The notes under the pieces were generated by a model. That model was not told where the DNA came from and searched no databases. It saw only the letters and a list, made by a program, of their open reading frames with translations. This document shows, one piece after another, positions 2,652 through 11,783 of a stretch of 64,000 bases of DNA. This DNA is from an uncultured Candidatus Rokubacteria bacterium (lineage in GTDB: Bacteria > Methylomirabilota > Methylomirabilia > Rokubacteriales > DASRDR01). The DNA is taken from the NCBI GenBank assembly GCA_963708025.1, contig CAVPSB010000015.1:96001-160000 (forward strand), read 5' to 3'. The position numbers were made by a program, and so were the translations under genes. Position 1 is the stretch's first letter; each line of letters starts with the position of its first letter.

Positions 2652-2679
2652 CCCGCGGGCTCGAGAGCGTGTGAAGGAA

Positions 2680-2775
2680 TCGGGATTCTCCGGCTCCCCC
2701 CTCCCCCCAGCCAAAGGCCGAAGGCCGTCCATGAGTAGGGGAGGGGGGCTGGGGGGGGTGGGCGGGAGGTCCCAA
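2680..2775 (+). repeat. G/C-rich palindromic intergenic element, copy 1
   Basis: TCGGGATTCTCC...CCCCCCTCCCCCC...GGGGAGGGGGG...GGGAGGTCCCA; related to copies at 3613, 10212, 20372, 30051, 50114; internal GGCCGAAGGCC mini-hairpin. Confidence 0.75.
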
Positions 2776-2781
2776 ACTGAG

Positions 2782-3603
2782 ATGCCGGCAGCGCGCGGTG
2801 ACGGCGGGAGCGTCGCGCTGTCGATCCGAAACGTCAGCAAGCGCTTCGGTCGGGGCGCCGACGCCATCCACGCCCTCGACGACATCTCGCTGGAGGTGAG
2901 CCCGGGAGAGCTCCTGGCGGTGATCGGGCCGTCGGGGTGCGGCAAGTCGACGCTGTTCAACGTCGTCGGCGGCCTGATCGACGACTACCAGGGCGAGATC
3001 CGGGTGGACGGCCGGCCGGTGCGTGGTCCGCAGCGCGACATGGGCATGGTGTTCCAGGAGGAGTCGACCTTCCCGTGGCTCACCACGCTCGAGAACGTGA
3101 TGTTTCCCCTGGAGGTCGGCGGCGTCGCCCGGCCCGAATGCCGCGCCCGTGCCCGGGAGCTTCTGCGGCTGGTGGGGCTGGAGGAGTTCGCCGGGCGGTA
3201 CCCGGCCGAGCTCTCCGGCGGGATGCGCCAGCGCACCGCCATCGCCCGGACGCTCGCCTTCGCCCCCCGGATCCTGCTCATGGACGAGCCGTTCGGCGCG
3301 CTCGACGAGCAGACCCGACTGCTGCTCGGCGACAAGGTATTGCAGATCCAGAGCGAGCTGGGCCAGACGTCGCTCCTGATCACCCACAGCCTGACCGAGG
3401 CGGTGCAGCTCGCCGACCGGGTGGCGGTCATGACGTTCCGGCCGGGACGCATCAAGCGGGTGGTCGAGATCGACCTGCCGCGGCCGCGCACCTCCGAGAT
3501 CGTGGCCAGCGCCGAGTTCGGGCGCCTGGTCGGGCTCCTGTGGGGAGACCTGCGCGAAGAGGCCTCGCGCGGCCTCTCCGAGACCGAAGCCGCCGCCCGG
3601 TAG
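2782..3603 (+). CDS. NitT/TauT-family ABC transporter ATP-binding protein
   Basis: Walker A GPSGCGKST, signature LSGGMRQR, Walker B LLMDEPFGALD, H-loop ITHS; start uncertain (in-frame GTG at 2671 also possible). Confidence 0.93.
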   Translation: MPAARGDGGSVALSIRNVSKRFGRGADAIHALDDISLEVSPGELLAVIGPSGCGKSTLFNVVGGLIDDYQGEIRVDGRPVRGPQRDMGMVFQEESTFPWLTTLENVMFPLEVGGVARPECRARARELLRLVGLEEFAGRYPAELSGGMRQRTAIARTLAFAPRILLMDEPFGALDEQTRLLLGDKVLQIQSELGQTSLLITHSLTEAVQLADRVAVMTFRPGRIKRVVEIDLPRPRTSEIVASAEFGRLVGLLWGDLREEASRGLSETEAAAR

Positions 3604-3612
3604 CGATTCGGA

Positions 3613-3717
3613 TCGGGTGTCCAACTCGCCCTCCGACTCCCCCCTCCCCCCCGGTGGGTGGGGGAGGGGGGCCAAAGGGCCGAAGGCCGTCGAACAACAG
3701 GGTAGGAGGGAGGATTC
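3613..3717 (+). repeat. G/C-rich palindromic intergenic element, copy 2
   Basis: Core CCCCCTCCCCCCCGGTGGGTGGGGGAGGGGG plus GGCCGAAGGCC; ends in GGGAGG just before ATG 3723. Confidence 0.8.
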
Positions 3718-3722
3718 AAGTA

Positions 3723-4688
3723 ATGCACAGCATGAAGTCCATCGTCGCAGTGGCGCTCGGTCTGCTGATGCTGGCGGCGCTGCCGGCCCAGGCCCAGGCG
3801 CCCGATCGGGTCAGGGCCGCGATCGGCCAGCGCGGCAACTGGGACACGATGGTGGTGCCGCAGGGGATCGAGGCCGGCTTCTTCAAGAAGGAGAACCTCG
3901 AGGTCGAAATGACCTGGACGCGCGGCGGCGCCGAGACGCTGCAGGCGCTCATCACCGGCAGCGTGGACGTCGACCTCGCCAACGGAATCCTCGGCGTGAT
4001 CGGCGCCTACGCCAAGGGCGCGCCGATCCGGGTGATCAGCGCCGAGTTCACCGGCGCCCACGACCTGTTCTGGTACGTCAAGGCCGACAGCCCCGTGAAG
4101 TCCATGAAGGACATGGACGGCCGGACCATGGGCTACTCGCGCCCGGGCTCGTCCACGCATCTCGTCTCGCAGTCGCTGGCGGCGGCGGCGGGCGTGAAGC
4201 CCCGCTTCGTGTCGGCCGGCGGCGTGCCCGACAACCGCACCCAGGTCATGTCGGGCCAGATCGACGCCGGCTGGTCCATCCCCCCGTTCAACCTCGAGCT
4301 CCTGGCCGAGGGGAAGATCCGCGTCATCGCCCGCGGCGGCGACGTGCCGGCGCTGTCCGCCCAGACCGTCCGGGTGAACGTGGCCAGCCTGAAGTTCCTC
4401 ACCGAGCGCCGGGACGTGGCGCGCCGCTTCGTGAAGGCGTACCCGACACGATCGACTGGATGTACAAGAACCCGGAGGCCGCCATCGCCTTCTTCGCCAA
4501 GTTCAACAGCGTCTCGCTGGACATCGCGAAGCAAGACCCAGGAGTCCTACCCCCGGCAGGCCATGGCGCCCGAGCCGGTCGCGGGCCTGGAGCAGACCCT
4601 GGCCCAGGCGCTCGAGTACAAGCAGCTCGACAAGCCGATGAGCGTCCAGCAGGCGCAGGGCCTGTTCGACTTCGTCTACAAGCCGTAG
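3723..4688 (+). CDS. NitT/TauT-family (NMT1/SsuA-like) ABC substrate-binding protein with two compensating frameshifts near 4442 and 4531
   Basis: Signal peptide ...AQAQA; GIEAGFFKKENLEVE, GGAETLQAL, YSRPGSSTH; the native-looking segment TIDWMYKNPEAAIAFFAKFNSVSLDIAK lies in another frame (ORF 3617..5041). Confidence 0.88.
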   Translation: MHSMKSIVAVALGLLMLAALPAQAQAPDRVRAAIGQRGNWDTMVVPQGIEAGFFKKENLEVEMTWTRGGAETLQALITGSVDVDLANGILGVIGAYAKGAPIRVISAEFTGAHDLFWYVKADSPVKSMKDMDGRTMGYSRPGSSTHLVSQSLAAAAGVKPRFVSAGGVPDNRTQVMSGQIDAGWSIPPFNLELLAEGKIRVIARGGDVPALSAQTVRVNVASLKFLTERRDVARRFVKAYPTRSTGCTRTRRPPSPSSPSSTASRWTSRSKTQESYPRQAMAPEPVAGLEQTLAQALEYKQLDKPMSVQQAQGLFDFVYKP

Positions 4689-4816
4689 GGGCGGGGCAGT
4701 TAGTTAGAGCCCCTGACTCCTCCATCGGGCAAGGGCGAGAGAGGAGGTTCTCGCGCATCCGACGACAAGAAGCGGCAGTAACGAATAGACATGCGAAATG
4801 GGTTGAAGCCTACGAG

Positions 4817-4836
4817 GTGTATCCTTTTCGATACAC
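4817..4836. promoter_or_regulatory. Perfect inverted repeat GTGTATC-N6-GATACAC, candidate transcription-factor site
   Basis: 7-bp perfect arms with a 6-bp spacer, ending 20 bp upstream of a TTGACA -35 box. Confidence 0.55.
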
Positions 4837-4856
4837 TGCATCGAAACGCGAATTCC

Positions 4857-4885
4857 TTGACAGGATCTGCTCCGCTTGCTACCGT
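4857..4885 (+). promoter_or_regulatory. Sigma70-type promoter for the secreted-protein cassette
   Basis: TTGACA (4857-4862), 17 bp spacer, TACCGT (4880-4885) preceded by an extended -10 TG. Confidence 0.6.
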
Positions 4886-4902
4886 CGCCTGCACTTCAGC
4901 CG

Positions 4903-4922
4903 TTCGATTATTTTCGATTATT
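4903..4922. repeat. 10-bp direct repeat TTCGATTATT x2 in the presumed 5' leader (candidate regulator site)
   Basis: Exact tandem copies at 4903-4912 and 4913-4922 in an AT-rich stretch. Confidence 0.55.
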
Positions 4923-4943
4923 ATAGAACATGGGGAGGGCCAC

Positions 4944-6413
4944 ATGTCTGCCTGTCTCCCATCCCTTCGGTTGCTCCTCACTGTTCTCGGCGCGCTCGCC
5001 CTTGCGCCGATCATCGTCGCACCATGCGCAGCGGCGGCTGACTATTTCCTGCATACCACCCAGGCGGACATTCTGGATCAAACGAGTCCGACCGCAACGA
5101 CCGCCAAGCTCAAGGATTCTCCCGCGGTCAACCGGACGACCTATCAGCCGATCGGAACGTGGTCGGGGGCGCCGACGAACCAGGCCCGCCAGCTGGACTC
5201 GGTCAGCGCGGTGCACGTGTGGGTCGGCCTCAAGAACAGCGACGACCAGGGCACGTATTTCGACGTGCGGGCGGAGGTCCGAAAGAACGGGGTCGTGGTC
5301 GCCTCGGGCGAGACCAAGAACATTCAAGGCGTCACCCGGAATCCGGATCTGGCGAAGGAAGTGGTGGTGGCTCTCGGGCTGACGTCCCCGGTCATGTTCG
5401 ACGCGGGCGACGTCCTGTCGCTCAAGCTCCTCGCAAAGGTGGCCGACAGCGGCGGCCATGCGAACGCGGTCGGCCTGCGGGCCTACTACGACGGCACCAG
5501 CCGCGCCTCGCGGTTCGGGGCCACGCTCACGGCGGCGGCAAGCCTCCAGATCGCGATCACCAGTCCCATGGACGGTGGCGTCCTCCCGGAGCCGGCCACG
5601 CTGGTGGAGGGGACGCTGACCGGTCCGCCGGGCACCGGAGTGACTCTGACGATCACTCTGACCTTCCAGGAACAATCCTTCGAGCTCCCCATTCCGGTTC
5701 AGCTCGCCCAGGGCCGATTTGCAGCCTGGGTTGCCTTGACGGTGGGAGCCAATCGGCTGGTCGCGCGGGCCACCGCACCGACGGGAGCATCGGCCGAGAG
5801 CGCAGCCTCCGTCATCGTGCAGGCGGACGATCCCGAGCTGACCCGCGTGCCCCGGCCCGATGTGTCGCCCACCGTCGGCTTCGCGCCCCTGGCGGTGACC
5901 TTCGGAGGCGTCGCCGCGGCGGCCCCCGAGGTCGTCGTCCTCGACCTCGACGTGGACAGCGACGGCGTTCCCGATTACACTCTGGCCCACTTCGCCACGC
6001 CGCCCCACAAAGTCACGCACGTCTACTCGACCGAGGGTCTCTATATCACGACCATGGTGATTCGGGATGCGACCGGGCAATCGCGGACGACGCGGGTCCC
6101 GATCAACGTCATCCCGGTGCCGGATCTTGGCGCCATCTGGCGTGCCTTCCAGGCGGCGCTGGTTTCCGGGGACATCGACGCGGCGCTTCAGTATGTCGCG
6201 GTAGAAGCCCGCGATCGGTACCGAAGCGCGTTCCTGAATCTGCAGTCAGACCTCCCGAGCATCGCGGCCGCGTTCCAGACGCTGACCGTTCAGGTGATCA
6301 CGAGCGGCTACGGGACGGCCTCGCTCGTCCGGATCCGCGATGGGCTCTCCGAAGGCTTCTTGATCCATTTCGTGCGTGACGGCGATGGCGTCTGGCGTAT
6401 CGCGAGCATGTAG
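4944..6413 (+). CDS. Secreted multidomain beta-rich protein (Ig-like plus PKD-like plus probable C-terminal NTF2-like domain)
   Basis: GGGGAGG RBS; signal peptide; ITSP...TLVEGT...LTVGANRLVARAT (Ig-like); GFAPLAVTF...DVDSDGVPDY...HVYSTEGLY (PKD-like); C-terminal WRAFQAAL..GDIDAAL...FVRDGDGVWRI. Confidence 0.7.
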   Translation: MSACLPSLRLLLTVLGALALAPIIVAPCAAAADYFLHTTQADILDQTSPTATTAKLKDSPAVNRTTYQPIGTWSGAPTNQARQLDSVSAVHVWVGLKNSDDQGTYFDVRAEVRKNGVVVASGETKNIQGVTRNPDLAKEVVVALGLTSPVMFDAGDVLSLKLLAKVADSGGHANAVGLRAYYDGTSRASRFGATLTAAASLQIAITSPMDGGVLPEPATLVEGTLTGPPGTGVTLTITLTFQEQSFELPIPVQLAQGRFAAWVALTVGANRLVARATAPTGASAESAASVIVQADDPELTRVPRPDVSPTVGFAPLAVTFGGVAAAAPEVVVLDLDVDSDGVPDYTLAHFATPPHKVTHVYSTEGLYITTMVIRDATGQSRTTRVPINVIPVPDLGAIWRAFQAALVSGDIDAALQYVAVEARDRYRSAFLNLQSDLPSIAAAFQTLTVQVITSGYGTASLVRIRDGLSEGFLIHFVRDGDGVWRIASM

Positions 6414-6420
6414 GTTGGCG

Positions 6421-7089
6421 ATGTGGCGCGCGGGAATGGCGGTGCTCCTCGCCGTCATCGTTCCGATTGCCTGTGTCGCGGCGGCACCGGCGTTCTACTC
6501 CGGCGCCGCGATTCGGGGCCGCGTAGTGGACGCCGAGAGCCAGCAGCCCCTCGAAGGCGTCCATGTCGTTACCCAGACGGTTCTCAGCACCGGATTCTTA
6601 CACGGGCAGCACGTCGAGCGCTTCCACGTGGCGGAGACCGTGACGAACGCGCGGGGCGAGTACGAGCTGCCGGCATGGGGACCGAAGCCGCGGCCGTTCC
6701 TGTCTGAGCTAGACTATGGCGATCCGCGATTGACGTACTTCAAGCCCGGCTACCGTGCCGAGTTTCGAGGCAATCCGGCCAGCGTCCCGAACGACAACTC
6801 GGTGAGAGCATCCCAGTGGGATGGCGCGACGATCCCCCTGACCCAATTCCGGGGAGCGCCCGAAGAGTGGGCTCGAGAGCTCCGAACGTTGCAACGGAAT
6901 CTCGCGTGGGGTGTCCTTGTCGGAGACGTCGTTCGCCGACGCAACGACTATTGGAAAGCGATGCCAACAATGGTGTGGACGATCGAGGCAGCTCGCCGTG
7001 AGTTGCCAGAGCCGATGCGTTTCATTCCGTTGGACCTTGAGAACTGGGACATCACGGAGCCGGAGTTGAACGCCCTCTTGCCACGATAG
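6421..7089 (+). CDS. Secreted protein with a carboxypeptidase-regulatory-like (transthyretin-like) domain
   Basis: Hydrophobic N-terminus; IRGRVVDAESQQPLEGVHV...ETVTNARGEYELP...YFKPGY. Confidence 0.7.
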   Translation: MWRAGMAVLLAVIVPIACVAAAPAFYSGAAIRGRVVDAESQQPLEGVHVVTQTVLSTGFLHGQHVERFHVAETVTNARGEYELPAWGPKPRPFLSELDYGDPRLTYFKPGYRAEFRGNPASVPNDNSVRASQWDGATIPLTQFRGAPEEWARELRTLQRNLAWGVLVGDVVRRRNDYWKAMPTMVWTIEAARRELPEPMRFIPLDLENWDITEPELNALLPR

Positions 7090-7100
7090 GGGTCTGCTCA

Positions 7101-9281
7101 ATGAGATTCCATCCGCGGCGCTTCACATGGCTGTCCGTCGCTTCGCTTCTCGCAGTGACAGCGTCGCCGGTGGCCGCGTACGAGTTCGATACGCACGAAG
7201 CCATGTCCGCGGCAGCGTTCCAGCTCAGCTCGCTTCCGTCACGACTGTCGGCCTATGGCATCCGAGTCGGTGACCCGCTGCCGGGACGGGTCAGGATCTT
7301 CCGGTGGGAGCGGCTGAGACCAATCGAGTGGGTCGCTCAAGGTGGCCGAGACGAGGACTGGCCGGACGTGCGAGTTATCAACCATTTCTACGATCCGTAC
7401 AATGACCGCGGGTTCACTGGCTTCGGACAGTTCGGATACAGGGCGCCGGACTGGGCCCTCGAGGACACGCGCGAGTTCCCGGATCAGAACCACTCGTACA
7501 GGGATGCGCGGGCCGCCTTCTACCTGGGCCTCACCGACCGTGACCGGGCGACGCGGGAGCGGAGCCTCGGCTACACGTTCTACGCGCTCGGCCACGTGAT
7601 GCACCTGATTCAAGACATGGCCCAGCCTCAGCACGCCCGCAATGACCCCCATCCGACCTTCTCATCACGGCGGAGCCTTTTGGAGGCATACGTTGACGAG
7701 CTCGTCAATGCGGGCCGGTTCGATCCAGCCGGCGACGTTGCGCCGAGCGCGATTCTCGGCAAGATTGGACGAGTCCGCGACCTTTGGGCGACGGGGACCG
7801 GAACGGCGATGGGGCGACTCGGCATGGCCGCGTTCACGAACGCCAGCTTCGTCTCGGCGGGCACCAACTTCAACGACCTACGAGGTGGAGCCACTGGTGG
7901 CGGCTACCCAGACCCGAAACTCGACCTCCTACAGATCAGTTCCCCCACGCCCAACGCACAGTGCAAGGATGGTGTGCGGCCTCCCTTGGGCTTCCCGCTC
8001 ACGTTCTACGGGAATCGCTTCAGTGATCCCATCCAGGGCGGTGAAATCGAGAACGATCGGATGACGACGTACTCCATCTTCGATCAGCATCTCCACGCGC
8101 AGAACGCAGGCCTTATCTTTGCGCTGAATTGCTTCAACCTGGACAGGGTTGCGGATATCCTCGTTCGCCGGGCAGTGTCCTACTCCGCGGCCCTACTCGA
8201 CTACTTCTTCCGCGGGCGGATCGAGGGACGGCTGGAGCCCCCGCGGAACGGCGAGGCTCGTGCACCGCTTCGGATCGTCAATCCGGCCTCGACCCCGACG
8301 GCGCCCGGCGAGCGCCTGACCGGGACCTTCGAGCTCTACTACGACGCGGCGGACGGGATCCGGGTGCGGCAGGCTCGCTGGGAAGACGTTGATCTTACAC
8401 CCGGCGCTCAGACCGACCCCCTGTCGATCCCCGACCCGCCGATGGATCAGCCAGCCCCGGTCGACCCGGCCCGCTACCTGCTGGTCTTCCGGGGGAAGCT
8501 CGGCGAGGAATCCGACGCAGTGACGGCCACCCAGGTAGACGGCCGCGTCTGGTATCTCCAGCTCGGCTCGCAGACGCGCGATCATGGGGCGCTCGTCGAG
8601 TATCCCCCCATGGTCCTCGAGCCCGGGCCGATCCTCTCGGGGACCCTGACACCCGTCGATCCGGCGGCGGTGTTCGACGGGACGGCGTACGTCGTCATGG
8701 CGGGGGCCGGTCGCACGGCGACGCTGGAGTACGTGTTCACGTGTGGCGGCCCCGAGTTCACGCCGATGGGCATCCAGACCCCGCGGGGCGAAGGGCGCTC
8801 CCTCATGGCGTGGTATCGAGGGCCGGCGGCGATGCGCGGCGATACGGCGGTGCTTTCGGTCAGCGGTCAGGACGAGACACTCACCGTCGAGGGGCAAGGC
8901 TACGTCAGCTCGTTCAGCCCCGTGACGATCGAGGTCGTCCGGTTCGCGGCGCCGGCGTCGCCCGAGGCGCTGGCGGCCTTCACGGTCCTGAACCCGCCGG
9001 TCGTGCAGGCCGTGCTGTCCACCGTCTCGGTGAATGCCCCGTCCTTCGTCGAGGTGGGCCCGATCGATCTCCAAGGGGCCGCCTTCGTGGGAGTGCGCCT
9101 CACCGCGGTGCCGACCGCCCCGGGCCCGATCGTTCCCAGTGGGGTCGGGGGCTTCCTGGACAACATCTGCTTTCACGAGATCGTCCCGCGGTTCGGCCTG
9201 GTCAGCCTGCGGATCTATGGGGGCAGCTTCGGCCAGGGACCCCAGGCGACCATCACGCTGAGAATCCAGCCAGCCCCCTGA
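7101..9281 (+). CDS. Secreted Zn-dependent phospholipase C/P1-nuclease-fold protein with C-terminal beta-rich domains
   Basis: Signal peptide ending PVAA then YEFDTH; DED; NHFYDP; LGHVMHLIQD; QPQH; DPH...E, matching the order of trinuclear Zn ligands in the PLC/P1 superfamily. Confidence 0.8.
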   Translation: MRFHPRRFTWLSVASLLAVTASPVAAYEFDTHEAMSAAAFQLSSLPSRLSAYGIRVGDPLPGRVRIFRWERLRPIEWVAQGGRDEDWPDVRVINHFYDPYNDRGFTGFGQFGYRAPDWALEDTREFPDQNHSYRDARAAFYLGLTDRDRATRERSLGYTFYALGHVMHLIQDMAQPQHARNDPHPTFSSRRSLLEAYVDELVNAGRFDPAGDVAPSAILGKIGRVRDLWATGTGTAMGRLGMAAFTNASFVSAGTNFNDLRGGATGGGYPDPKLDLLQISSPTPNAQCKDGVRPPLGFPLTFYGNRFSDPIQGGEIENDRMTTYSIFDQHLHAQNAGLIFALNCFNLDRVADILVRRAVSYSAALLDYFFRGRIEGRLEPPRNGEARAPLRIVNPASTPTAPGERLTGTFELYYDAADGIRVRQARWEDVDLTPGAQTDPLSIPDPPMDQPAPVDPARYLLVFRGKLGEESDAVTATQVDGRVWYLQLGSQTRDHGALVEYPPMVLEPGPILSGTLTPVDPAAVFDGTAYVVMAGAGRTATLEYVFTCGGPEFTPMGIQTPRGEGRSLMAWYRGPAAMRGDTAVLSVSGQDETLTVEGQGYVSSFSPVTIEVVRFAAPASPEALAAFTVLNPPVVQAVLSTVSVNAPSFVEVGPIDLQGAAFVGVRLTAVPTAPGPIVPSGVGGFLDNICFHEIVPRFGLVSLRIYGGSFGQGPQATITLRIQPAP

Positions 9282-9378
9282 CGGCGCCCAGACGATCCTA
9301 AGGCGGTGGCTGACGGTCTGGAGACAGGCGGAACGGCCTTTGTTGGGGTCATTCGAGGCTGGGGCGGAGATCCGACAA

Positions 9379-10200
9379 ATGCGCATCAGCCGCAAACAAC
9401 GACTTTGGCGTTTCAAGGAGTCGGAGTCGTCAGGGTGGGGTTGGATCGGCGGGGTGGTGCTGCTGCTGACTGTCTCGACGGTGTCGGTTGCGGAGGAGGC
9501 GCCGAAGTTCGACGGCCGGGGCTGGATGGTCGGGAACCAGCAGAAGAACGCTCGCCAGAGCCTGACGGAGTACGTGTTGCCCGGCCAGACGGTAGACAAC
9601 TGGAGGGAGCTGGTCACCAGCACCGTCTTCTACCAGCCCGTCCCCCTCGCCGCCTTCGTGGAGAGGCTCCACTCGTCCATGTCCCGGGGTTGTCCCTCCC
9701 TCGTCTGGAACGTCATCCGGCAGGATGAGAAGACCGTGGTCTTCGAGTGGCGGGACGCGGGGTGCGGCGGCTTCGAGCCTCAGAGCGAGCTGGACCGGGT
9801 CACGATCGAGAAGGATGGACTCTACCGGCTGGCGTATGCGGCCAAGGTCCAAGGGCCTCTTCCGCCCGAGAAGCGAAAGGAATGGCTCGCCATCCTGGGC
9901 CAGGTTCCACTCGCCGAGCGTTCCGTGGGCGGAACGTCGCCCGCCGGAACGCCGGCCGCCTCGGCCCCAGGCAGCAAGGCAGGGGCGCCGGCAACGAAGC
10001 TGTCCACCGAAGAGCTCGCGGCCGGAGTGCGTCGGAGCGGGTGGACCTGCCCGGCGGGCGTCAAGAGCGAGGTCAAGGGTCAAGTGCAAGGGCCTCAGGG
10101 ACCTCTGACGACGTGGCTCCTCGACTGCTCGAACGGTCAGCAGTACACGGTGCTCGTGGACCCATCCGGCTCCATGACCGCCTTCCAGACGCCCAGGTAG
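9379..10200 (+). CDS. Hypothetical secreted/membrane-anchored protein
   Basis: Hydrophobic segment WIGGVVLLLTVSTVSVA; TEYVLPGQTVDNWRELVT; two Cys pairs; start uncertain (9340 or 9379). Confidence 0.6.
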   Translation: MRISRKQRLWRFKESESSGWGWIGGVVLLLTVSTVSVAEEAPKFDGRGWMVGNQQKNARQSLTEYVLPGQTVDNWRELVTSTVFYQPVPLAAFVERLHSSMSRGCPSLVWNVIRQDEKTVVFEWRDAGCGGFEPQSELDRVTIEKDGLYRLAYAAKVQGPLPPEKRKEWLAILGQVPLAERSVGGTSPAGTPAASAPGSKAGAPATKLSTEELAAGVRRSGWTCPAGVKSEVKGQVQGPQGPLTTWLLDCSNGQQYTVLVDPSGSMTAFQTPR

Positions 10201-10211
10201 ACGGAAGGGAA

Positions 10212-10266
10212 TCGGCTGCCCGGCTCCCTCTCGGCGGATGGCCGGGGGTGGGTGGGAGGTCCCGAG
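10212..10266 (+). repeat. Degenerate copy 3 of the G/C palindromic element
   Basis: CCGGCTCCCTC...GGGGGTGGGTGGGAGGTCCCGAG; 3' end nearly matches copy 1 (GGGAGGTCCCAAACTGAG vs GGGAGGTCCCGAGCTGAG). Confidence 0.55.
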
Positions 10267-11016
10267 CTGAGGCGCACGGTGGTGAGCACGGTGGCTGGCT
10301 TGGCCGGACTGGCTGTGGTGGCCGGGCTCGTCGAGCTGGTCATCCGGCTGGGCTGGGTCTCGCCGCTGGTGGTGGCGCCGCCGGGGGCGCTGCCGGGCGC
10401 CTTCACCAAGCTCTGGGCCGAGGGCTACGTGCTGGCGCCGTTCTTTACCACGCTGGCCCAGGCCTTCGCCGCGACGCTGCTGGCCGCCCTGGTCGGCATC
10501 CCGTCCGGCTACCTCCTGTGGAAGCGGCCGGCGCTGGGCGTCGCCTACGAGCCCTGGCTGGGCGCCGCCTTTGCCGCCCCCATCATCCTGCTCTATCCGC
10601 TGTTCCTGGTGGTCATGGGGCGGGGCTACGTCACCACGGTGTTCGCCGGCTTCCTGGCGGCGGCGATCCCGGTGGTGCTCAAGACCCGCGAGGGGCTGCT
10701 CGGCGTGCCGCGGGTGCTGATCGACGTCGGTCGCAGCCTGCACGTCCCATCCCGCCAGCTCCTGACGCGGGTCATCCTGCCGGCGGCCGCGCCGACCGTG
10801 TTCACCGGGCTCCGCCTCGGCCTGATCTACGCGCTGGTGAACATCATCGGCATCGAGTACCTGATCGACTTCGGCGGCCTGGGGCGTGTGGTGTCGGAGA
10901 TGCACTACCGCTTCGAGATCCCCGCCATGTACGGGGCTATCTTACTCATCGTGGCGGTCAGCTCGATCTTCCTGCTCGCCCTCCGCCGGGTGGAGCGGTG
11001 GCTGAGACCACGCTGA
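10252..11016 (+). CDS. NitT/TauT-family ABC permease 1
   Basis: Multiple TM helices; EAA-loop region LIDVGRSLHVPSRQLLTRVILPAAAP, GGLGRVV; start uncertain (GTG 10252 or CTG 10267). Confidence 0.9.
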   Translation: MGGPELRRTVVSTVAGLAGLAVVAGLVELVIRLGWVSPLVVAPPGALPGAFTKLWAEGYVLAPFFTTLAQAFAATLLAALVGIPSGYLLWKRPALGVAYEPWLGAAFAAPIILLYPLFLVVMGRGYVTTVFAGFLAAAIPVVLKTREGLLGVPRVLIDVGRSLHVPSRQLLTRVILPAAAPTVFTGLRLGLIYALVNIIGIEYLIDFGGLGRVVSEMHYRFEIPAMYGAILLIVAVSSIFLLALRRVERWLRPR

Positions 11017-11783
11017 CCCGGGCGGCGGGGGCGGTGGGCCGCGCGCGGTGGTTGGCGCCGAGCCGCGTGAGCGCGGCCACCCTGGCCGTGATCCTCGCCG
11101 CCTGGGAGGCGATGGCGCGCTCGGGCCTCCTGTACCAGGACGTGGTGCCGCCGCTGGAGAAGGTGGTGATCGCGTTCGGGCAACTGCTCGCCAGCGCCGA
11201 GACCTATCGCCATCTGGGCGTCACCGCCTGGGAAGTCGGCGCCGGCTTCACCCTCGGGCTCGCCGCCGGGCTCGCCTTCGGCGTCCTGATGGGCGCCCGG
11301 CGCCTCCTCGGCGAGGCGGCGACGCCCTACGTCGAGGGGCTGGCCACCGCGCCCAAGATCGTGTTCCTGCCGATCGCGATGCTGGCGCTCGGCGTGGGGA
11401 TCCAGTCGAAGATCGCGCTGGGGGCGCTGTCGGCGTTCTTCCCGGTGGTGCTCAACACCGCCGCCGGGATGCGCGAGATCCGGCCGGTGCTGATCCAGGT
11501 CGGCCGGAGCTTCGGCCTGTCGGCCTGGCAGATGGCGCGCCGCATCTACCTGCCGGCGCTGGCGCGCTCGGTGGTGATCAGCATGCGCCTCGGCCTCGGC
11601 GTGGCGGTGGTGGGCGTGGTGCTGGCCGAGATCAAGCTGGCCAACCGCGGGCTGGGCTTCCTGGCCATCGAGCACTACAGCCACTTCCGCATCCCGCAGA
11701 TGTACGCGGTGCTGCTGCTCGTCTTCGTGCTGGCGATCGCCGCCAACGGCCTGATCGGCCGCCTGCTGCCGAAGCACTACTAG
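10998..11783 (+). CDS. NitT/TauT-family ABC permease 2
   Basis: C-terminal part of track ORF 9747..11783; APKIVFLP, LIQVGRSFGLSAWQMARRIYLPA, RGLGFL. Confidence 0.9.
   Translation: MAETTLTRAAGAVGRARWLAPSRVSAATLAVILAAWEAMARSGLLYQDVVPPLEKVVIAFGQLLASAETYRHLGVTAWEVGAGFTLGLAAGLAFGVLMGARRLLGEAATPYVEGLATAPKIVFLPIAMLALGVGIQSKIALGALSAFFPVVLNTAAGMREIRPVLIQVGRSFGLSAWQMARRIYLPALARSVVISMRLGLGVAVVGVVLAEIKLANRGLGFLAIEHYSHFRIPQMYAVLLLVFVLAIAANGLIGRLLPKHY

Follow-up and report, generated by a model that had tools for sequence, protein, structure and literature searches.

Three adjacent genes on the forward strand of a 64,000-nucleotide stretch of Candidatus Rokubacteria DNA (hereafter the window) make up one instance of a three-protein module that is Sec-exported, widespread and unnamed, and the third gene belongs to a new, large family inside the phospholipase C (PLC)/P1-nuclease superfamily. 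The trio is found in many bacterial phyla, yet has neither a name nor an assigned function. The reading we prefer, at slightly less than even confidence, is a new exported phosphodiesterase module comprising an enzyme (C), an active-site-capping lipoprotein (B) and a modular targeting protein (A). The locus is laid out as follows:

4690 to 10250, + strand: inserted block of about 5.6 kb, made up of the trio and an ORF at 9340 to 10200 (comparison with relatives)
4933 to 4939, + strand: Shine-Dalgarno-like GGGAGGG, read directly, 5 nt upstream of the start of gene A
4944 to 6413, + strand: gene A (ATG start, TAG stop, 489 aa), with a signal-like leader, a variable N-terminal domain and an Ig-like/PKD-like/NTF2-like module (ORF, Pfam)
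6421 to 7089, + strand: gene B (ATG start, TAG stop, 222 aa), with a lipobox-like leader, then a CarboxypepD_reg/transthyretin-like domain, then a helical C-terminal region (ORF, Pfam)
7101 to 9281, + strand: gene C (ATG start, TGA stop, 726 aa)

An earlier note on this DNA had described three tightly spaced genes with export signals, and the ORF reading bears this out: the gaps are 7 nt between A and B (GTTGGCG) and 11 nt between B and C (GGGTCTGCTCA), and a basic n-region followed by a hydrophobic core can be read directly from each of the three translations. No sigma-70 consensus was reported upstream of A. In the window, the trio lies within a 5.6-kb insertion in an ABC-transporter operon, where it separates the genes for the substrate-binding protein and the permease; in a relative (G005), the ATPase, substrate-binding-protein and permease genes are contiguous. 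Window positions 3773-4684 and 10289-11770 correspond to positions 3405-2494 and 2443-962 of a related locus (L095) at 85-87% identity, with the junction also aligned. The GC content is 0.63-0.68 within the insertion versus 0.70-0.76 outside, and GC3 is 0.79-0.83 versus mostly >0.9. A search for terminal repeats of the 5.6-kb insertion found none.

Gene-neighborhood comparison, a check suggested by the earlier note, showed that the trio stays together across phyla. Among 64 loci in which 2,500 nt or more of sequence precedes C, spanning at least seven phyla, the conserved Ig-PKD-NTF2 end of A was upstream of C in every case and B was present in 58, always in the order A-B-C on the same strand (also by tblastn). 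Three of the six loci missing B have no room for it. B is multiplied in at least five loci, with two to three tandem copies in some. The B profile starts a median +12 nt from the stop of A, and the C profile a median -15 nt from the stop of B. Across the window and 80 related loci (81 in all), no other ORF cluster occurred in more than 20, and the recurring clusters were antisense shadows. The 76 rows of the tree comprise Pseudomonadota (51), Rokuibacteriota (9), Acidobacteriota (3), Nitrospirota (3), Binatota (2), Myxococcota (2), Gemmatimonadota (1) and five without a group, including the window copy. Genomes carry one to four copies of the module, and a plasmid search gave one weak match.

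The C family is large, with 8,599, 6,539 and 3,531 cluster representatives (50% identity) at E ≤1e-3, 1e-10 and 1e-30, respectively. Its members score below the Pfam threshold, and NCBIfam contains no family that matches them. The earlier note did not recognize the architecture as a named system; consistent with this, Pfam, NCBIfam, PADLOC and Atlas held no named family or system for the trio, and we found no literature describing it as one. The parts of C are:

7101 to 7178, + strand: residues 1-26, signal peptide with predicted cleavage VAA/Y27 (leader statistics of homologs)
7179 to 8216, + strand: residues 27-372, PLC/P1-fold catalytic domain (structure model, profile, invariant ligand columns)
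8217 to 8555, + strand: residues 373-485, conserved Ig-like beta-sandwich after the catalytic domain (structure search)
8556 to 9281, + strand: residues 486-726, lineage-variable C-terminal region (pLDDT <50)

Residues 27-372 are modeled, with pLDDT mostly >90, in the fold of the trinuclear-zinc PLC/P1 enzymes, with a family-specific insert at about residues 200-340. A Foldseek-independent search of this model against 48,161 PDB representatives returned only six chains at Z ≥8, namely three Zn-PLCs (1olp_A, Z 17.2, rmsd 2.9, 206 residues aligned; 1ah7, Z 16.4, rmsd 3.8, 211 aligned; 8cqm_B, Z 15.5) and the S1, SmNuc1 and AtBFN2 nucleases (Z 12.3, 11.5 and 11.0, respectively). The seventh-ranked chain scored Z 7.8, and a separate structure search ranked the matches identically. 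In the superpositions, Tyr27 of the model falls on the first residue of the mature 1olp_A, 1ah7, 1ca1 and 2ffz chains, which agrees with the mature N-terminus put forward in the earlier note; 8cqm_B aligns from its residue 10. At the sequence level, the family profile matched Listeria PlcB (8cqm) at E 4.2e-6. Pfam Zn_dep_PLPC scored 17.1 bits on C, below its gathering score of 26.8, and reached E ≤0.01 in 2 of 27 homologs. The beta-sandwich at residues 373-485 resembles Ig-like domains found in GH2 enzymes and elsewhere (Z about 7-8), a similarity at the level of fold only. Residues 486-726 are covered by few homologs, and a 45%-identical copy occurs in G000 (contig C16).

All motifs quoted in the earlier note are present in the translation: PVAA/YEFDTH (Y27, H32), DED 84-86, NHFYDP 94-99, GHVMHLIQD 164-172, QPQH 175-178, DPH 182-184 and E195. 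Their correspondence to the zinc-ligand order of Bacillus cereus PLC was mapped by profile alignment, in which HFYDP, HxxxDxxxxxH and a later E are paired with both Listeria PlcB and B. cereus PLC. Across 120 aligned homologs (counts cover those reaching each position), H32 (107/107), D86 (114/114), H95 (116/116), H168 (118/118) and D172, H178, H184 and E195 (119/119 each) are invariant, and position 27 is Tyr in 101 and Phe in 6 of 107. Because the ligand residues are invariant wherever they are covered, the sequence alignment argues that these motifs are not due to chance. Homolog leaders have a median length of 24 aa and are signal peptide-like in 97 of 107, with Ala, Gly or Ser at position -1 in 101 of 107, and in 149 of the 150 best library matches the domain begins no later than residue 20.

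Signal-peptide cleavage would expose Tyr27, whose free amino group and carbonyl may complete a three-zinc site in the way Trp1 does in the solved enzymes, the other putative ligands being H32, D86, H95, H168, D172, H178, H184 and E195. If the site is completed in this way, C would be able to cleave phosphodiesters only once exported. The most likely substrate is a phospholipid head-group ester, given that the fold of C is nearer to the Zn-PLCs than to the nucleases. Some features of C are P1-like rather than PLC-like, namely the +5 spacing from Tyr27 to His32 and an invariant Arg (R91) soon after the Asp ligand D86; P1 nuclease itself has W1/H6 and D45/R48. Because of these features, a nucleic acid or nucleotide is a possible alternative substrate. 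C could instead be an S1/P1-type nuclease or nucleotide phosphodiesterase that scavenges nucleic acids or nucleotides outside the cell or in the periplasm, a proposal that differs in substrate alone and fits any model of the partners. We consider it unlikely, though still a serious contender. In its favor, S1/P1 nucleases rank second among the structural matches, and P1 resembles C in the features just described. Against it, the Z scores of the Zn-PLCs are higher by 3-5 units, their alignments span the whole domain, and they account for the only matches at the sequence level. The S1-P1_nuclease Pfam family did not match C at E ≤1 or any of 27 homologs at E ≤0.01.

The earlier note's description of B as a small protein of carboxypeptidase-regulatory fold is supported by a CarboxypepD_reg match (E 1.8e-5, under the gathering score), which recurs at E ≤1e-3 in 25 of 52 homologs. 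The leader of B ends in a lipobox-like VPIAC18, and a lipobox-like Cys was present in 34 of 52 homologs according to our own heuristic. One segment of B is placed by complex modeling at the active site of C:

6586 to 6615, + strand: B residues 56-65 (STGFLHGQHV), Gly-containing hairpin loop, predicted contact with the metal-site residues of C (complex model)

The B-C model reached ipSAE values of 0.64, 0.70 and 0.73 in three runs (best of three controls, 0.04), with at least 73% of contacts in common and partner pLDDT ≥87. In the calibration of the tool, this level was attained by 116 of the 157 solved complexes and by 2 of the 215 mismatched pairs; our input differed from that calibration in using unpaired alignments of our own and in including zinc. 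The interface and lowest-error contacts connect B residues 56-65 to C residues 28-30, 86-90, 184-187 and 195-197, which flank or include Y27, D86, H184 and E195. An interface is predicted on the active-site face of C, with the controls passed, and the hairpin of B is predicted to lie over the metal site. Within the loop, G62 is kept in 42 of 52 homologs and other positions vary; conservation is lower at the interface (mean top-residue fraction, 0.25) than over the remainder of B (0.43).

What such a contact would do can be read in several ways. In the preferred reading, B, which is small and lipid-anchored in about two thirds of homologs, would lay the hairpin of its transthyretin-like domain over the mouth of the metal site as a cognate cap, and would keep C tethered, and probably inactive, in the envelope of its producer as self-protection. 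It is also possible, but rather unlikely, that B is a membrane anchor or activator that holds the active-site face of C on the membrane while A binds substrate, for turnover of phospholipids or other phosphodiesters, whether from the cell itself or from its environment (e.g., nutrient acquisition or envelope remodeling). The lipobox-like leaders are consistent with this, as are the absence of toxin-system hallmarks and the occurrence of one to four copies per genome in many non-predatory soil and sediment lineages; moreover, if B sits beside the metal site, that site would face B's anchoring membrane. Nonetheless, the contacts cover the N-terminus and flank or include three putative ligands, which looks more like occlusion, B is missing from 6 of 64 loci, and Pho-box-like sites were not enriched in 43 regions upstream of A, where the best site averaged 5.28 mismatches, against 5.34 in shuffled sequence.

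The same predicted cap, along with the variable interface positions and tandem copies of B, would also suit a strict toxin-immunity system, in which C is a membrane- or DNA-attacking weapon against competitors or prey, B a kin-protecting periplasmic immunity lipoprotein and A a receptor-binding or delivery protein with swappable specificity domains. The variable N-terminus of A and C-terminus of C, the lower-GC insertion carrying the window copy, and the related Het-C domains reported from polymorphic toxin systems (PMC3482391) point in this direction. We nevertheless regard it as improbable. No secretion-system or delivery domain (T5/T6/T7SS, RHS, etc.) was found in C or nearby, the catalytic domain forms the conserved N-terminal portion of C instead of a variable C-terminal cassette, PADLOC gave no match, and the plasmid search gave a single weak one. 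Toxin/immunity wording in the strict sense is kept here as a hypothesis, since B is absent from 6 of 64 loci and no polymorphic-toxin hallmark was seen.

Returning to the capped phosphodiesterase that we prefer, we infer that A is its targeting or scaffold subunit, with a constant Ig-PKD-NTF2 C-terminal module and a swapped N-terminal part:

5040 to 5525, + strand: A residues 33-194, lineage-variable N-terminal domain (extent of homolog alignment)
5526 to 6116, + strand: A residues 195-391, Glucodextran_B-type Ig-like and then PKD-like beta-sandwiches (model, Pfam)
6117 to 6410, + strand: A residues 392-489, NTF2-like cone domain (structure matches)

The conserved part of A spans residues from about 195 to 489, and homologs align from about residue 200 on. 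The N-terminal position is occupied elsewhere by propellers, Big_7 arrays, pAdhesive_15, PKD arrays or a beta-helix, and a 78%-identical copy of residues 33-194 occurs in G000 (contig C26). The Ig/PKD-like protein with an NTF2-like end anticipated by the earlier note was recovered both by structure matches (model pLDDT 92) and by Pfam matches in homologs (Glucodextran_B, 53/58; PKD_4, 23/58). The Ig-like domain matched glucodextranase domain B (1ulv; Z 11.8, rmsd 3.2, 89 residues aligned), and the NTF2-like domain matched 3gzr_B (Z 10.4, rmsd 2.5, 96 aligned), 3f7s (Z 10.3) and the S1C-NTF2 part of RsgI9 (7sjy, Z 10.0).

Among known systems, the Tle/Tli pairs of type VI secretion (T6SS) combine a membrane-active hydrolase of alpha/beta-hydrolase or PLD-type fold with an adjacent small periplasmic, often lipid-anchored, blocking protein. 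The modeled position of B over the active site of C suggests a functional analogy; however, the enzyme folds are unrelated, C has its own Sec signal, A is a third conserved partner, B is not universal, and no T6SS genes were seen near the trio. S1/P1 nucleases (PF02265; 5fb9, 8qjl, 3w52) share the superfamily fold with C (Z 11-12.3), as well as, for P1, the aromatic-to-His spacing and the Arg after the Asp ligand, but score lower than the PLCs and lack a sequence-level match. To our knowledge, they have no partner genes. A third divergent branch, Het-C/Tox-HET-C, is predicted to have the PLC/S1-P1 fold and metal site and is described in secreted and toxin contexts by Zhang et al. 2012 (PMC3482391). 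The motif given there is HxxxDxxxH, compared with HxxxDxxxxxH in C, as in PLC, and the domain contexts differ from those of C; the Het-C Pfam family did not match C at E ≤1.

The best structural matches to C are the Zn-PLCs (PF00882: B. cereus PC-PLC, 1ah7; Listeria PlcB, 8cqm; and the clostridial alpha-toxins, 1olp/1ca1). Like these, C is exported, with its domain at the very N-terminus behind the signal peptide, and, like alpha-toxin, it has a beta-sandwich domain after the helical domain. In contrast, C shares 14-20% identity with them and falls below the Pfam threshold, no propeptide was seen, its N-terminal residue is Tyr or Phe where PLC has Trp, and its first His lies at +5 rather than +13. 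The family has no aligned His equivalent to PLC H142, and an invariant R180-x-D182-x-H184 is present instead. Also unlike the Zn-PLCs, C contains some 140 inserted residues, a conserved Ig-like domain, a variable C-terminal region and two obligate gene neighbors (B in 58 of 64 loci).

Three genes, all on one strand and separated by 7 nt (A to B) and 11 nt (B to C), make up the trio, and the placements and spacing that the earlier note had read for them were borne out:

Genes of the trio (window positions)
4944-6413, + strand: gene A, Ig-PKD-NTF2 protein of 489 aa, with GGGAGGG 5 nt before the ATG
6421-7089, + strand: gene B, small CarboxypepD_reg-like protein of 222 aa
7101-9281, + strand: gene C, putative PLC/P1-fold enzyme of 726 aa

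The GC3 values of A, B, and C (0.79-0.81) show the bias of real genes in a window of ~70% GC, although this bias is weaker than in neighboring genes (mostly >0.9). Each of the proteins begins with a basic stretch followed by a hydrophobic core, and all three are predicted, from their own sequences and those of homologs, to be exported. Directly upstream of the gene A ribosome-binding site is an AT-rich stretch (4903-4925) with a tandem TTCGATTATT repeat, in surroundings of otherwise 65-70% GC; it is a candidate operator or promoter. A consensus promoter and terminator scan returned nothing upstream of A, and its two matches on the + strand both lie within genes. No signal of phosphate regulation was seen: sites resembling the Pho-box consensus in 43 upstream regions had a mean best mismatch of 5.28, versus 5.34 in shuffled sequences. 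Among sequencing runs searched for the words of the sequence, none of RNA was listed, and four DNA runs contain only 6-12% of these words.

The trio sits in a block (4690-10250) that splits an ABC-transporter operon (ATPase, NMT1/THI5-type binding protein, and permease; 2671-4688 and 10252-11016). In a related genome (G005, locus L095), the ATPase, substrate-binding-protein, and permease genes are contiguous and share 85-87% nucleotide identity with those of the window, where ~5.6 kb comprising the trio and an ORF at 9340-10200 separates them at that junction. GC content falls within the inserted block; its ends carry no convincing direct or inverted terminal repeats, and no integrase marks them. 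As members of the family are present elsewhere in G005, the family is native to the lineage, and the position of the window copy is recent. A search of 72,556 plasmid records gave one weak partial match (17% coverage). The fourth ORF in the block (9340-10200, + strand) has no Pfam match and probably starts ~25 codons downstream of its TTG. It belongs to a family of ~260 aa proteins (129 homologs, up to 89% identity, all named ones "hypothetical"), some of which have a precomputed PF27161 match, and was not found with the trio in the 80 other loci.

The trio is conserved well beyond this lineage. A genome scan gave 606 pattern matches and 491 confirmed relatives, and the best 80 of the 491 confirmed loci were used for gene neighborhood analysis. 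Profile HMMs applied to six-frame ORFs of the 64 loci with at least 2,500 nt upstream of C placed the module of A upstream of C on the same strand in every case (64/64) and B in 58, always in the order A-B-C and across at least seven phyla, so the grouping of the three genes into one module, made in the earlier note from the window alone, holds. The genes abut: measured from the stop codon of one gene to the profile start of the next, median distances were +12 nt for A to B and −15 nt for B to C. By tblastn, A was detected in 71 of 80 loci, and the misses were mostly loci whose record ends upstream. ORF clustering over 81 loci (the 80 and the window) revealed no other gene in more than 20 loci, the recurrent clusters being antisense shadows of A and C, and none of the window's own neighbors travels with the trio. 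Mirror-tree correlations among A, B, and C (0.56-0.61, 51 loci) are no higher than common history alone would produce, and were dropped as evidence.

B is absent from 6 of the 64 loci. In three of these six, of delta/Myxococcota type (L021, L054, and L075), A is followed by C after 2-56 nt (<100 nt), leaving no room for B, and such B-less lineages may regulate the enzyme, or protect themselves against it, in some other way. Elsewhere, B is present in two or three copies, mostly in tandem (L010, L020, L030, L033, L034, L035, L055, and L084); in L030, B is found a second time after C. An apparent B-C fusion in L029 was dropped, as its run of X residues is a gap in the record.

In a tree of 76 C sequences from at least seven phyla (FastTree, midpoint root), the window C falls in a Rokuibacteriota clade with those of L008, L009, and L067 (SH-like support 99). 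Within a sample of its own phylum, the family is patchy, occurring in 35 of 101 genomes (31 of 77 high-quality ones), counting the window's genome and two genomes flagged as unpublished, G044 and G072, or in 33 of 99 without the latter two. Cultured, non-pathogenic carriers include Ramlibacter sp. WS9, Steroidobacter flavus, and Peristeroidobacter soli.

Further copies are present in the window's own genome. On contig C16 (L090, 3469-8468), the module recurs as an A-like gene, B-like sequence, and a C-like gene. Matches to C are scattered here across four ORFs that differ in frame, with a TAG in frame, and the N-terminal ~80 residues are lacking. This copy looks degraded, or may reflect an assembly error. 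Contig C26 (L088, 3617-7926) carries a rearranged variant, in which, on the minus strand, a protein 78% identical to the variable N-terminal domain of A (1-193), without the conserved Ig-PKD-NTF2 tail, is followed by B-like sequence and then a C paralog (27% identity), while a further B paralog (44%) is divergently oriented, on the plus strand. This arrangement suggests that modules have exchanged domains. Contig C39 carries a fourth C paralog (29% identity; L089, 4902-6473, minus strand) near its end, so that any upstream partners would fall outside the record.

For C, Pfam Zn_dep_PLPC (PF00882) scored below threshold (17.1 bits versus a gathering score of 26.8, E 0.0055), was matched at E ≤0.01 by 2 of 27 homologs, and is a precomputed match in one homolog (P0028); NCBIfam gave no match for C, and a single-sequence PDB search with C reached E 0.33. 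A word search recovered 229 relatives, and all those with a source name are called "hypothetical protein". With a profile built from 120 of these, the number of cluster representatives detected was 8,599 at E ≤1e-3, 6,539 at ≤1e-10, and 3,531 at ≤1e-30. Searched against the PDB, this profile matched Listeria PlcB (E 4.2e-6), and in the alignments printed for that protein and for B. cereus PLC, the ED, HFYDP, and HxxxDxxxxxH motifs of the family and its later Glu line up with the corresponding motifs of the PLCs.

Structure comparison was consistent with this match. The same alignment yielded an AlphaFold2 model of C with high confidence over residues 28-490 and low confidence after them; it was compared with 48,161 PDB representatives without a Foldseek pre-filter. 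Only six chains reached Z ≥8, namely the Zn-PLCs 1olp_A (17.2), 1ah7 (16.4), and 8cqm_B (15.5), followed by three S1/P1-type nucleases (12.3, 11.5, and 11.0), and the next-best match had Z 7.8. Other structure searches agreed with this order, with a Foldseek E of 2.4e-4. Superpositions on Zn-PLCs (rmsd 2.9-3.9, 206-211 residues aligned) assign C to the all-helical PLC fold, well above unrelated structures (≤7.8). The S1/P1 nuclease fold is also matched (Z 11.0-12.3, rmsd 3.9-4.0, 198-209 residues aligned), and the corresponding Pfam model, S1-P1_nuclease (PF02265), gave no match at E ≤1 for C or at E ≤0.01 for 27 homologs.

Structural alignments pair model residue 27 with residue 1 of mature PLCs. 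Of the 107 sequences in the 120-sequence alignment that cover this position, 101 have Tyr and 6 have Phe; the residue before it is A, G, or S in 101/107, and the leader (median 24 aa) is signal-peptide-like in 97/107. The catalytic domain begins in the first 20 residues of the protein in 149 of the 150 best library matches, as would be expected if the fold depends on an N-terminus freed by removal of the signal. H32, D86, H95, H168, D172, H178, H184, and E195 are invariant wherever covered in the same alignment, and R91 (114/116), R180 (118/119), and D182 (118/119) are nearly so. Taking the PLC ligands to be H14, D55, H69, H118, D122, H128, H142, and E146, with Trp1 as a further metal ligand, D86, H95, H168, D172, H178, and E195 are aligned and invariant counterparts, while H32 is invariant with a different spacing. 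No His in C aligns to PLC H142, for which H184 of the invariant R-x-D-x-H motif likely stands in. Together with Tyr27, these proposed ligands would presumably cluster in space.

The conserved part of A is its last ~295 residues (model pLDDT 92), which comprise an Ig-like domain (Z 11.8 to glucodextranase domain B), a second sandwich recognized as Pfam PKD in 23 of 58 homologs, and an NTF2-like cone fold at the C-terminus. The latter aligns to many NTF2-like/cystatin-like chains (Z 9.4-10.4, 91-100 residues of the 98-residue domain), and Pfam matched it only with DUF4864, in 2/58. Homologs of A range from 240 to 1,859 aa, varying upstream of the conserved module, and 48 of 59 complete A ORFs have a signal-like start. 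The heads of nine homologs scanned differ markedly from one another and include SBBP/DUF7948 propellers, eight Big_7 repeats, an ice-binding-like adhesive domain, PKD arrays, and a beta-helix.

For B, CarboxypepD_reg (PF13620) scored below threshold (25.4 bits versus a gathering score of 32.3, E 1.8e-5, half of the profile) and was found in 25 of 52 homologs at E ≤1e-3. A helical part follows this CarboxypepD_reg-like part and contains a Cys pair in many proteobacterial members. A lipobox-like Cys, mostly L-x-[GAS]-C, is present by our own heuristic in 34/52 homologs; the VPIAC leader of the window B is atypical, with Pro at −3, and its closest relatives (in L008, L009, and L024) have ordinary leaders without Cys. 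The nearest Atlas clusters of B and C are all unnamed.

The partnership of B and C raised in the earlier note was reflected in a predicted interface. The complex was modeled from C 27-485 (Tyr27 first), three zinc ions, and B 19-222, with separate alignments per protein, and gave ipSAE values of 0.64, 0.70, and 0.73 over three runs (median 0.70), versus 0.04 for the best of three controls. At least 73% of contacts were common to the runs, and partner pLDDT was at least 87. Among solved complexes, 116 of 157 attain the tool's mark, as do 2 of 215 mismatched pairs; these counts hold only roughly here because our own alignments and the riding ligand differ from the tool's calibration. Confident contact residues of C (28-30, 66, 86-90, 92-93, 184-187, 191-193, 195-197, 199-206, 290, 292, 330, 332, and 344) lie beside the N-terminus and around D86, H184, and E195, and those of B are centered on loop 56-65, with others at 94-103, 115-122, and 156-172. 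Interface positions of B are less conserved than the rest of the protein (0.25 versus 0.43); in the loop, G62 is kept in 42/52 homologs and His at position 61 in just 13/52. The model supports binding of B to the active-site face of C, and would fit a plug or an orienting anchor alike.

In the best-supported account, C would be a zinc phosphodiesterase that is exported, represents a new family of the PLC/P1 type, and becomes competent on signal cleavage, and B would be a cognate small (lipo)protein that accompanies C and covers its metal site. C would work with A as a modular partner, whose constant tail would belong to the module and whose variable head would supply specificity. The version of this proposal in which B acts as a protective cap has, in our estimate, slightly less than an even chance. 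That B instead anchors a constitutive envelope enzyme to the membrane or activates it, which the modeled interface would also accommodate, appears unlikely. A strict interbacterial toxin-immunity system, a narrower form of an option in the earlier note, is improbable: polymorphic toxins combine an N-terminal trafficking domain, a variable C-terminal cassette, and an invariably adjacent immunity gene, whereas C has a predicted Sec leader directly before a conserved catalytic domain, a Pfam scan found no trafficking domains, and B is not always present. The PADLOC models of known anti-phage defense systems likewise returned no families at E ≤0.01 for A, B, C, and ORF 9340.

Returning to C as an exported enzyme with B over its metal site, the most far-reaching form of the proposal would be a phylum-spanning, Sec-dependent weapon or foraging device, with a zinc phospholipase or nuclease, a dedicated lipoprotein that plugs its active site and so keeps it harmless in the periplasm of the producer, and exchangeable adhesin or propeller heads that aim it at different targets. 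We consider this a long shot; if true, it would constitute a new class of enzyme-inhibitor-targeting triad, with a fold unrelated to Tle/Tli or colicin-type systems. So far, the PLC/P1 superfamily is known from a few toxins of Gram-positive bacteria and from nucleases, either eukaryotic or bacterial. The family described here adds a third branch of very large size; its 50%-identity clusters number in the thousands, come mostly from uncultured soil, sediment, and groundwater bacteria, and are called "hypothetical protein" in public annotation. Two fixed partners, one of them predicted over the metal site, accompany this branch and offer a directly testable answer to how diderm cells could export through their own periplasm an enzyme expected to be active once its signal peptide is removed. 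The small, three-gene module could serve to define a new family, show a fold put to new use as an inhibitor, and exemplify modular targeting through exchanged domains.

Compared with Zn-PLCs, the family of C has Tyr or Phe rather than Trp as the N-terminal residue, and its first His, at +5 from this aromatic residue, departs from the PLC spacing. It further differs by carrying a ~140-residue insert, an Ig-like sandwich that is conserved (373-485), and a C-terminal region that varies. S1/P1 nucleases share the same superfamily fold and score lower than Zn-PLCs. The first-His spacing of C and the Arg after its Asp ligand are reminiscent of P1 nuclease, and for this reason, we give some weight to a nucleic acid or nucleotide substrate instead of a lipid, although we regard it as rather unlikely; the pI and Cys counts of the catalytic region were uninformative on substrate. 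Het-C was linked to Zn-PLC and S1/P1 as a third divergent branch by Zhang et al. (PMC3482391), who give its motif as HxxxDxxxH, in contrast to H168-x3-D172-x5-H178 in C, and Pfam gave no Het-C match to C at E ≤1. Pfam, NCBIfam, PADLOC, the Atlas, and the open literature yielded neither a family model nor a name or paper for this branch or the trio; InterPro superfamily assignments or the subscription journals, which lie outside that search, may already label the C domain at superfamily level. The fold and catalytic principle of C are those of Zn-PLCs and S1/P1 nucleases, while we regard the family and its conserved three-gene architecture as new.
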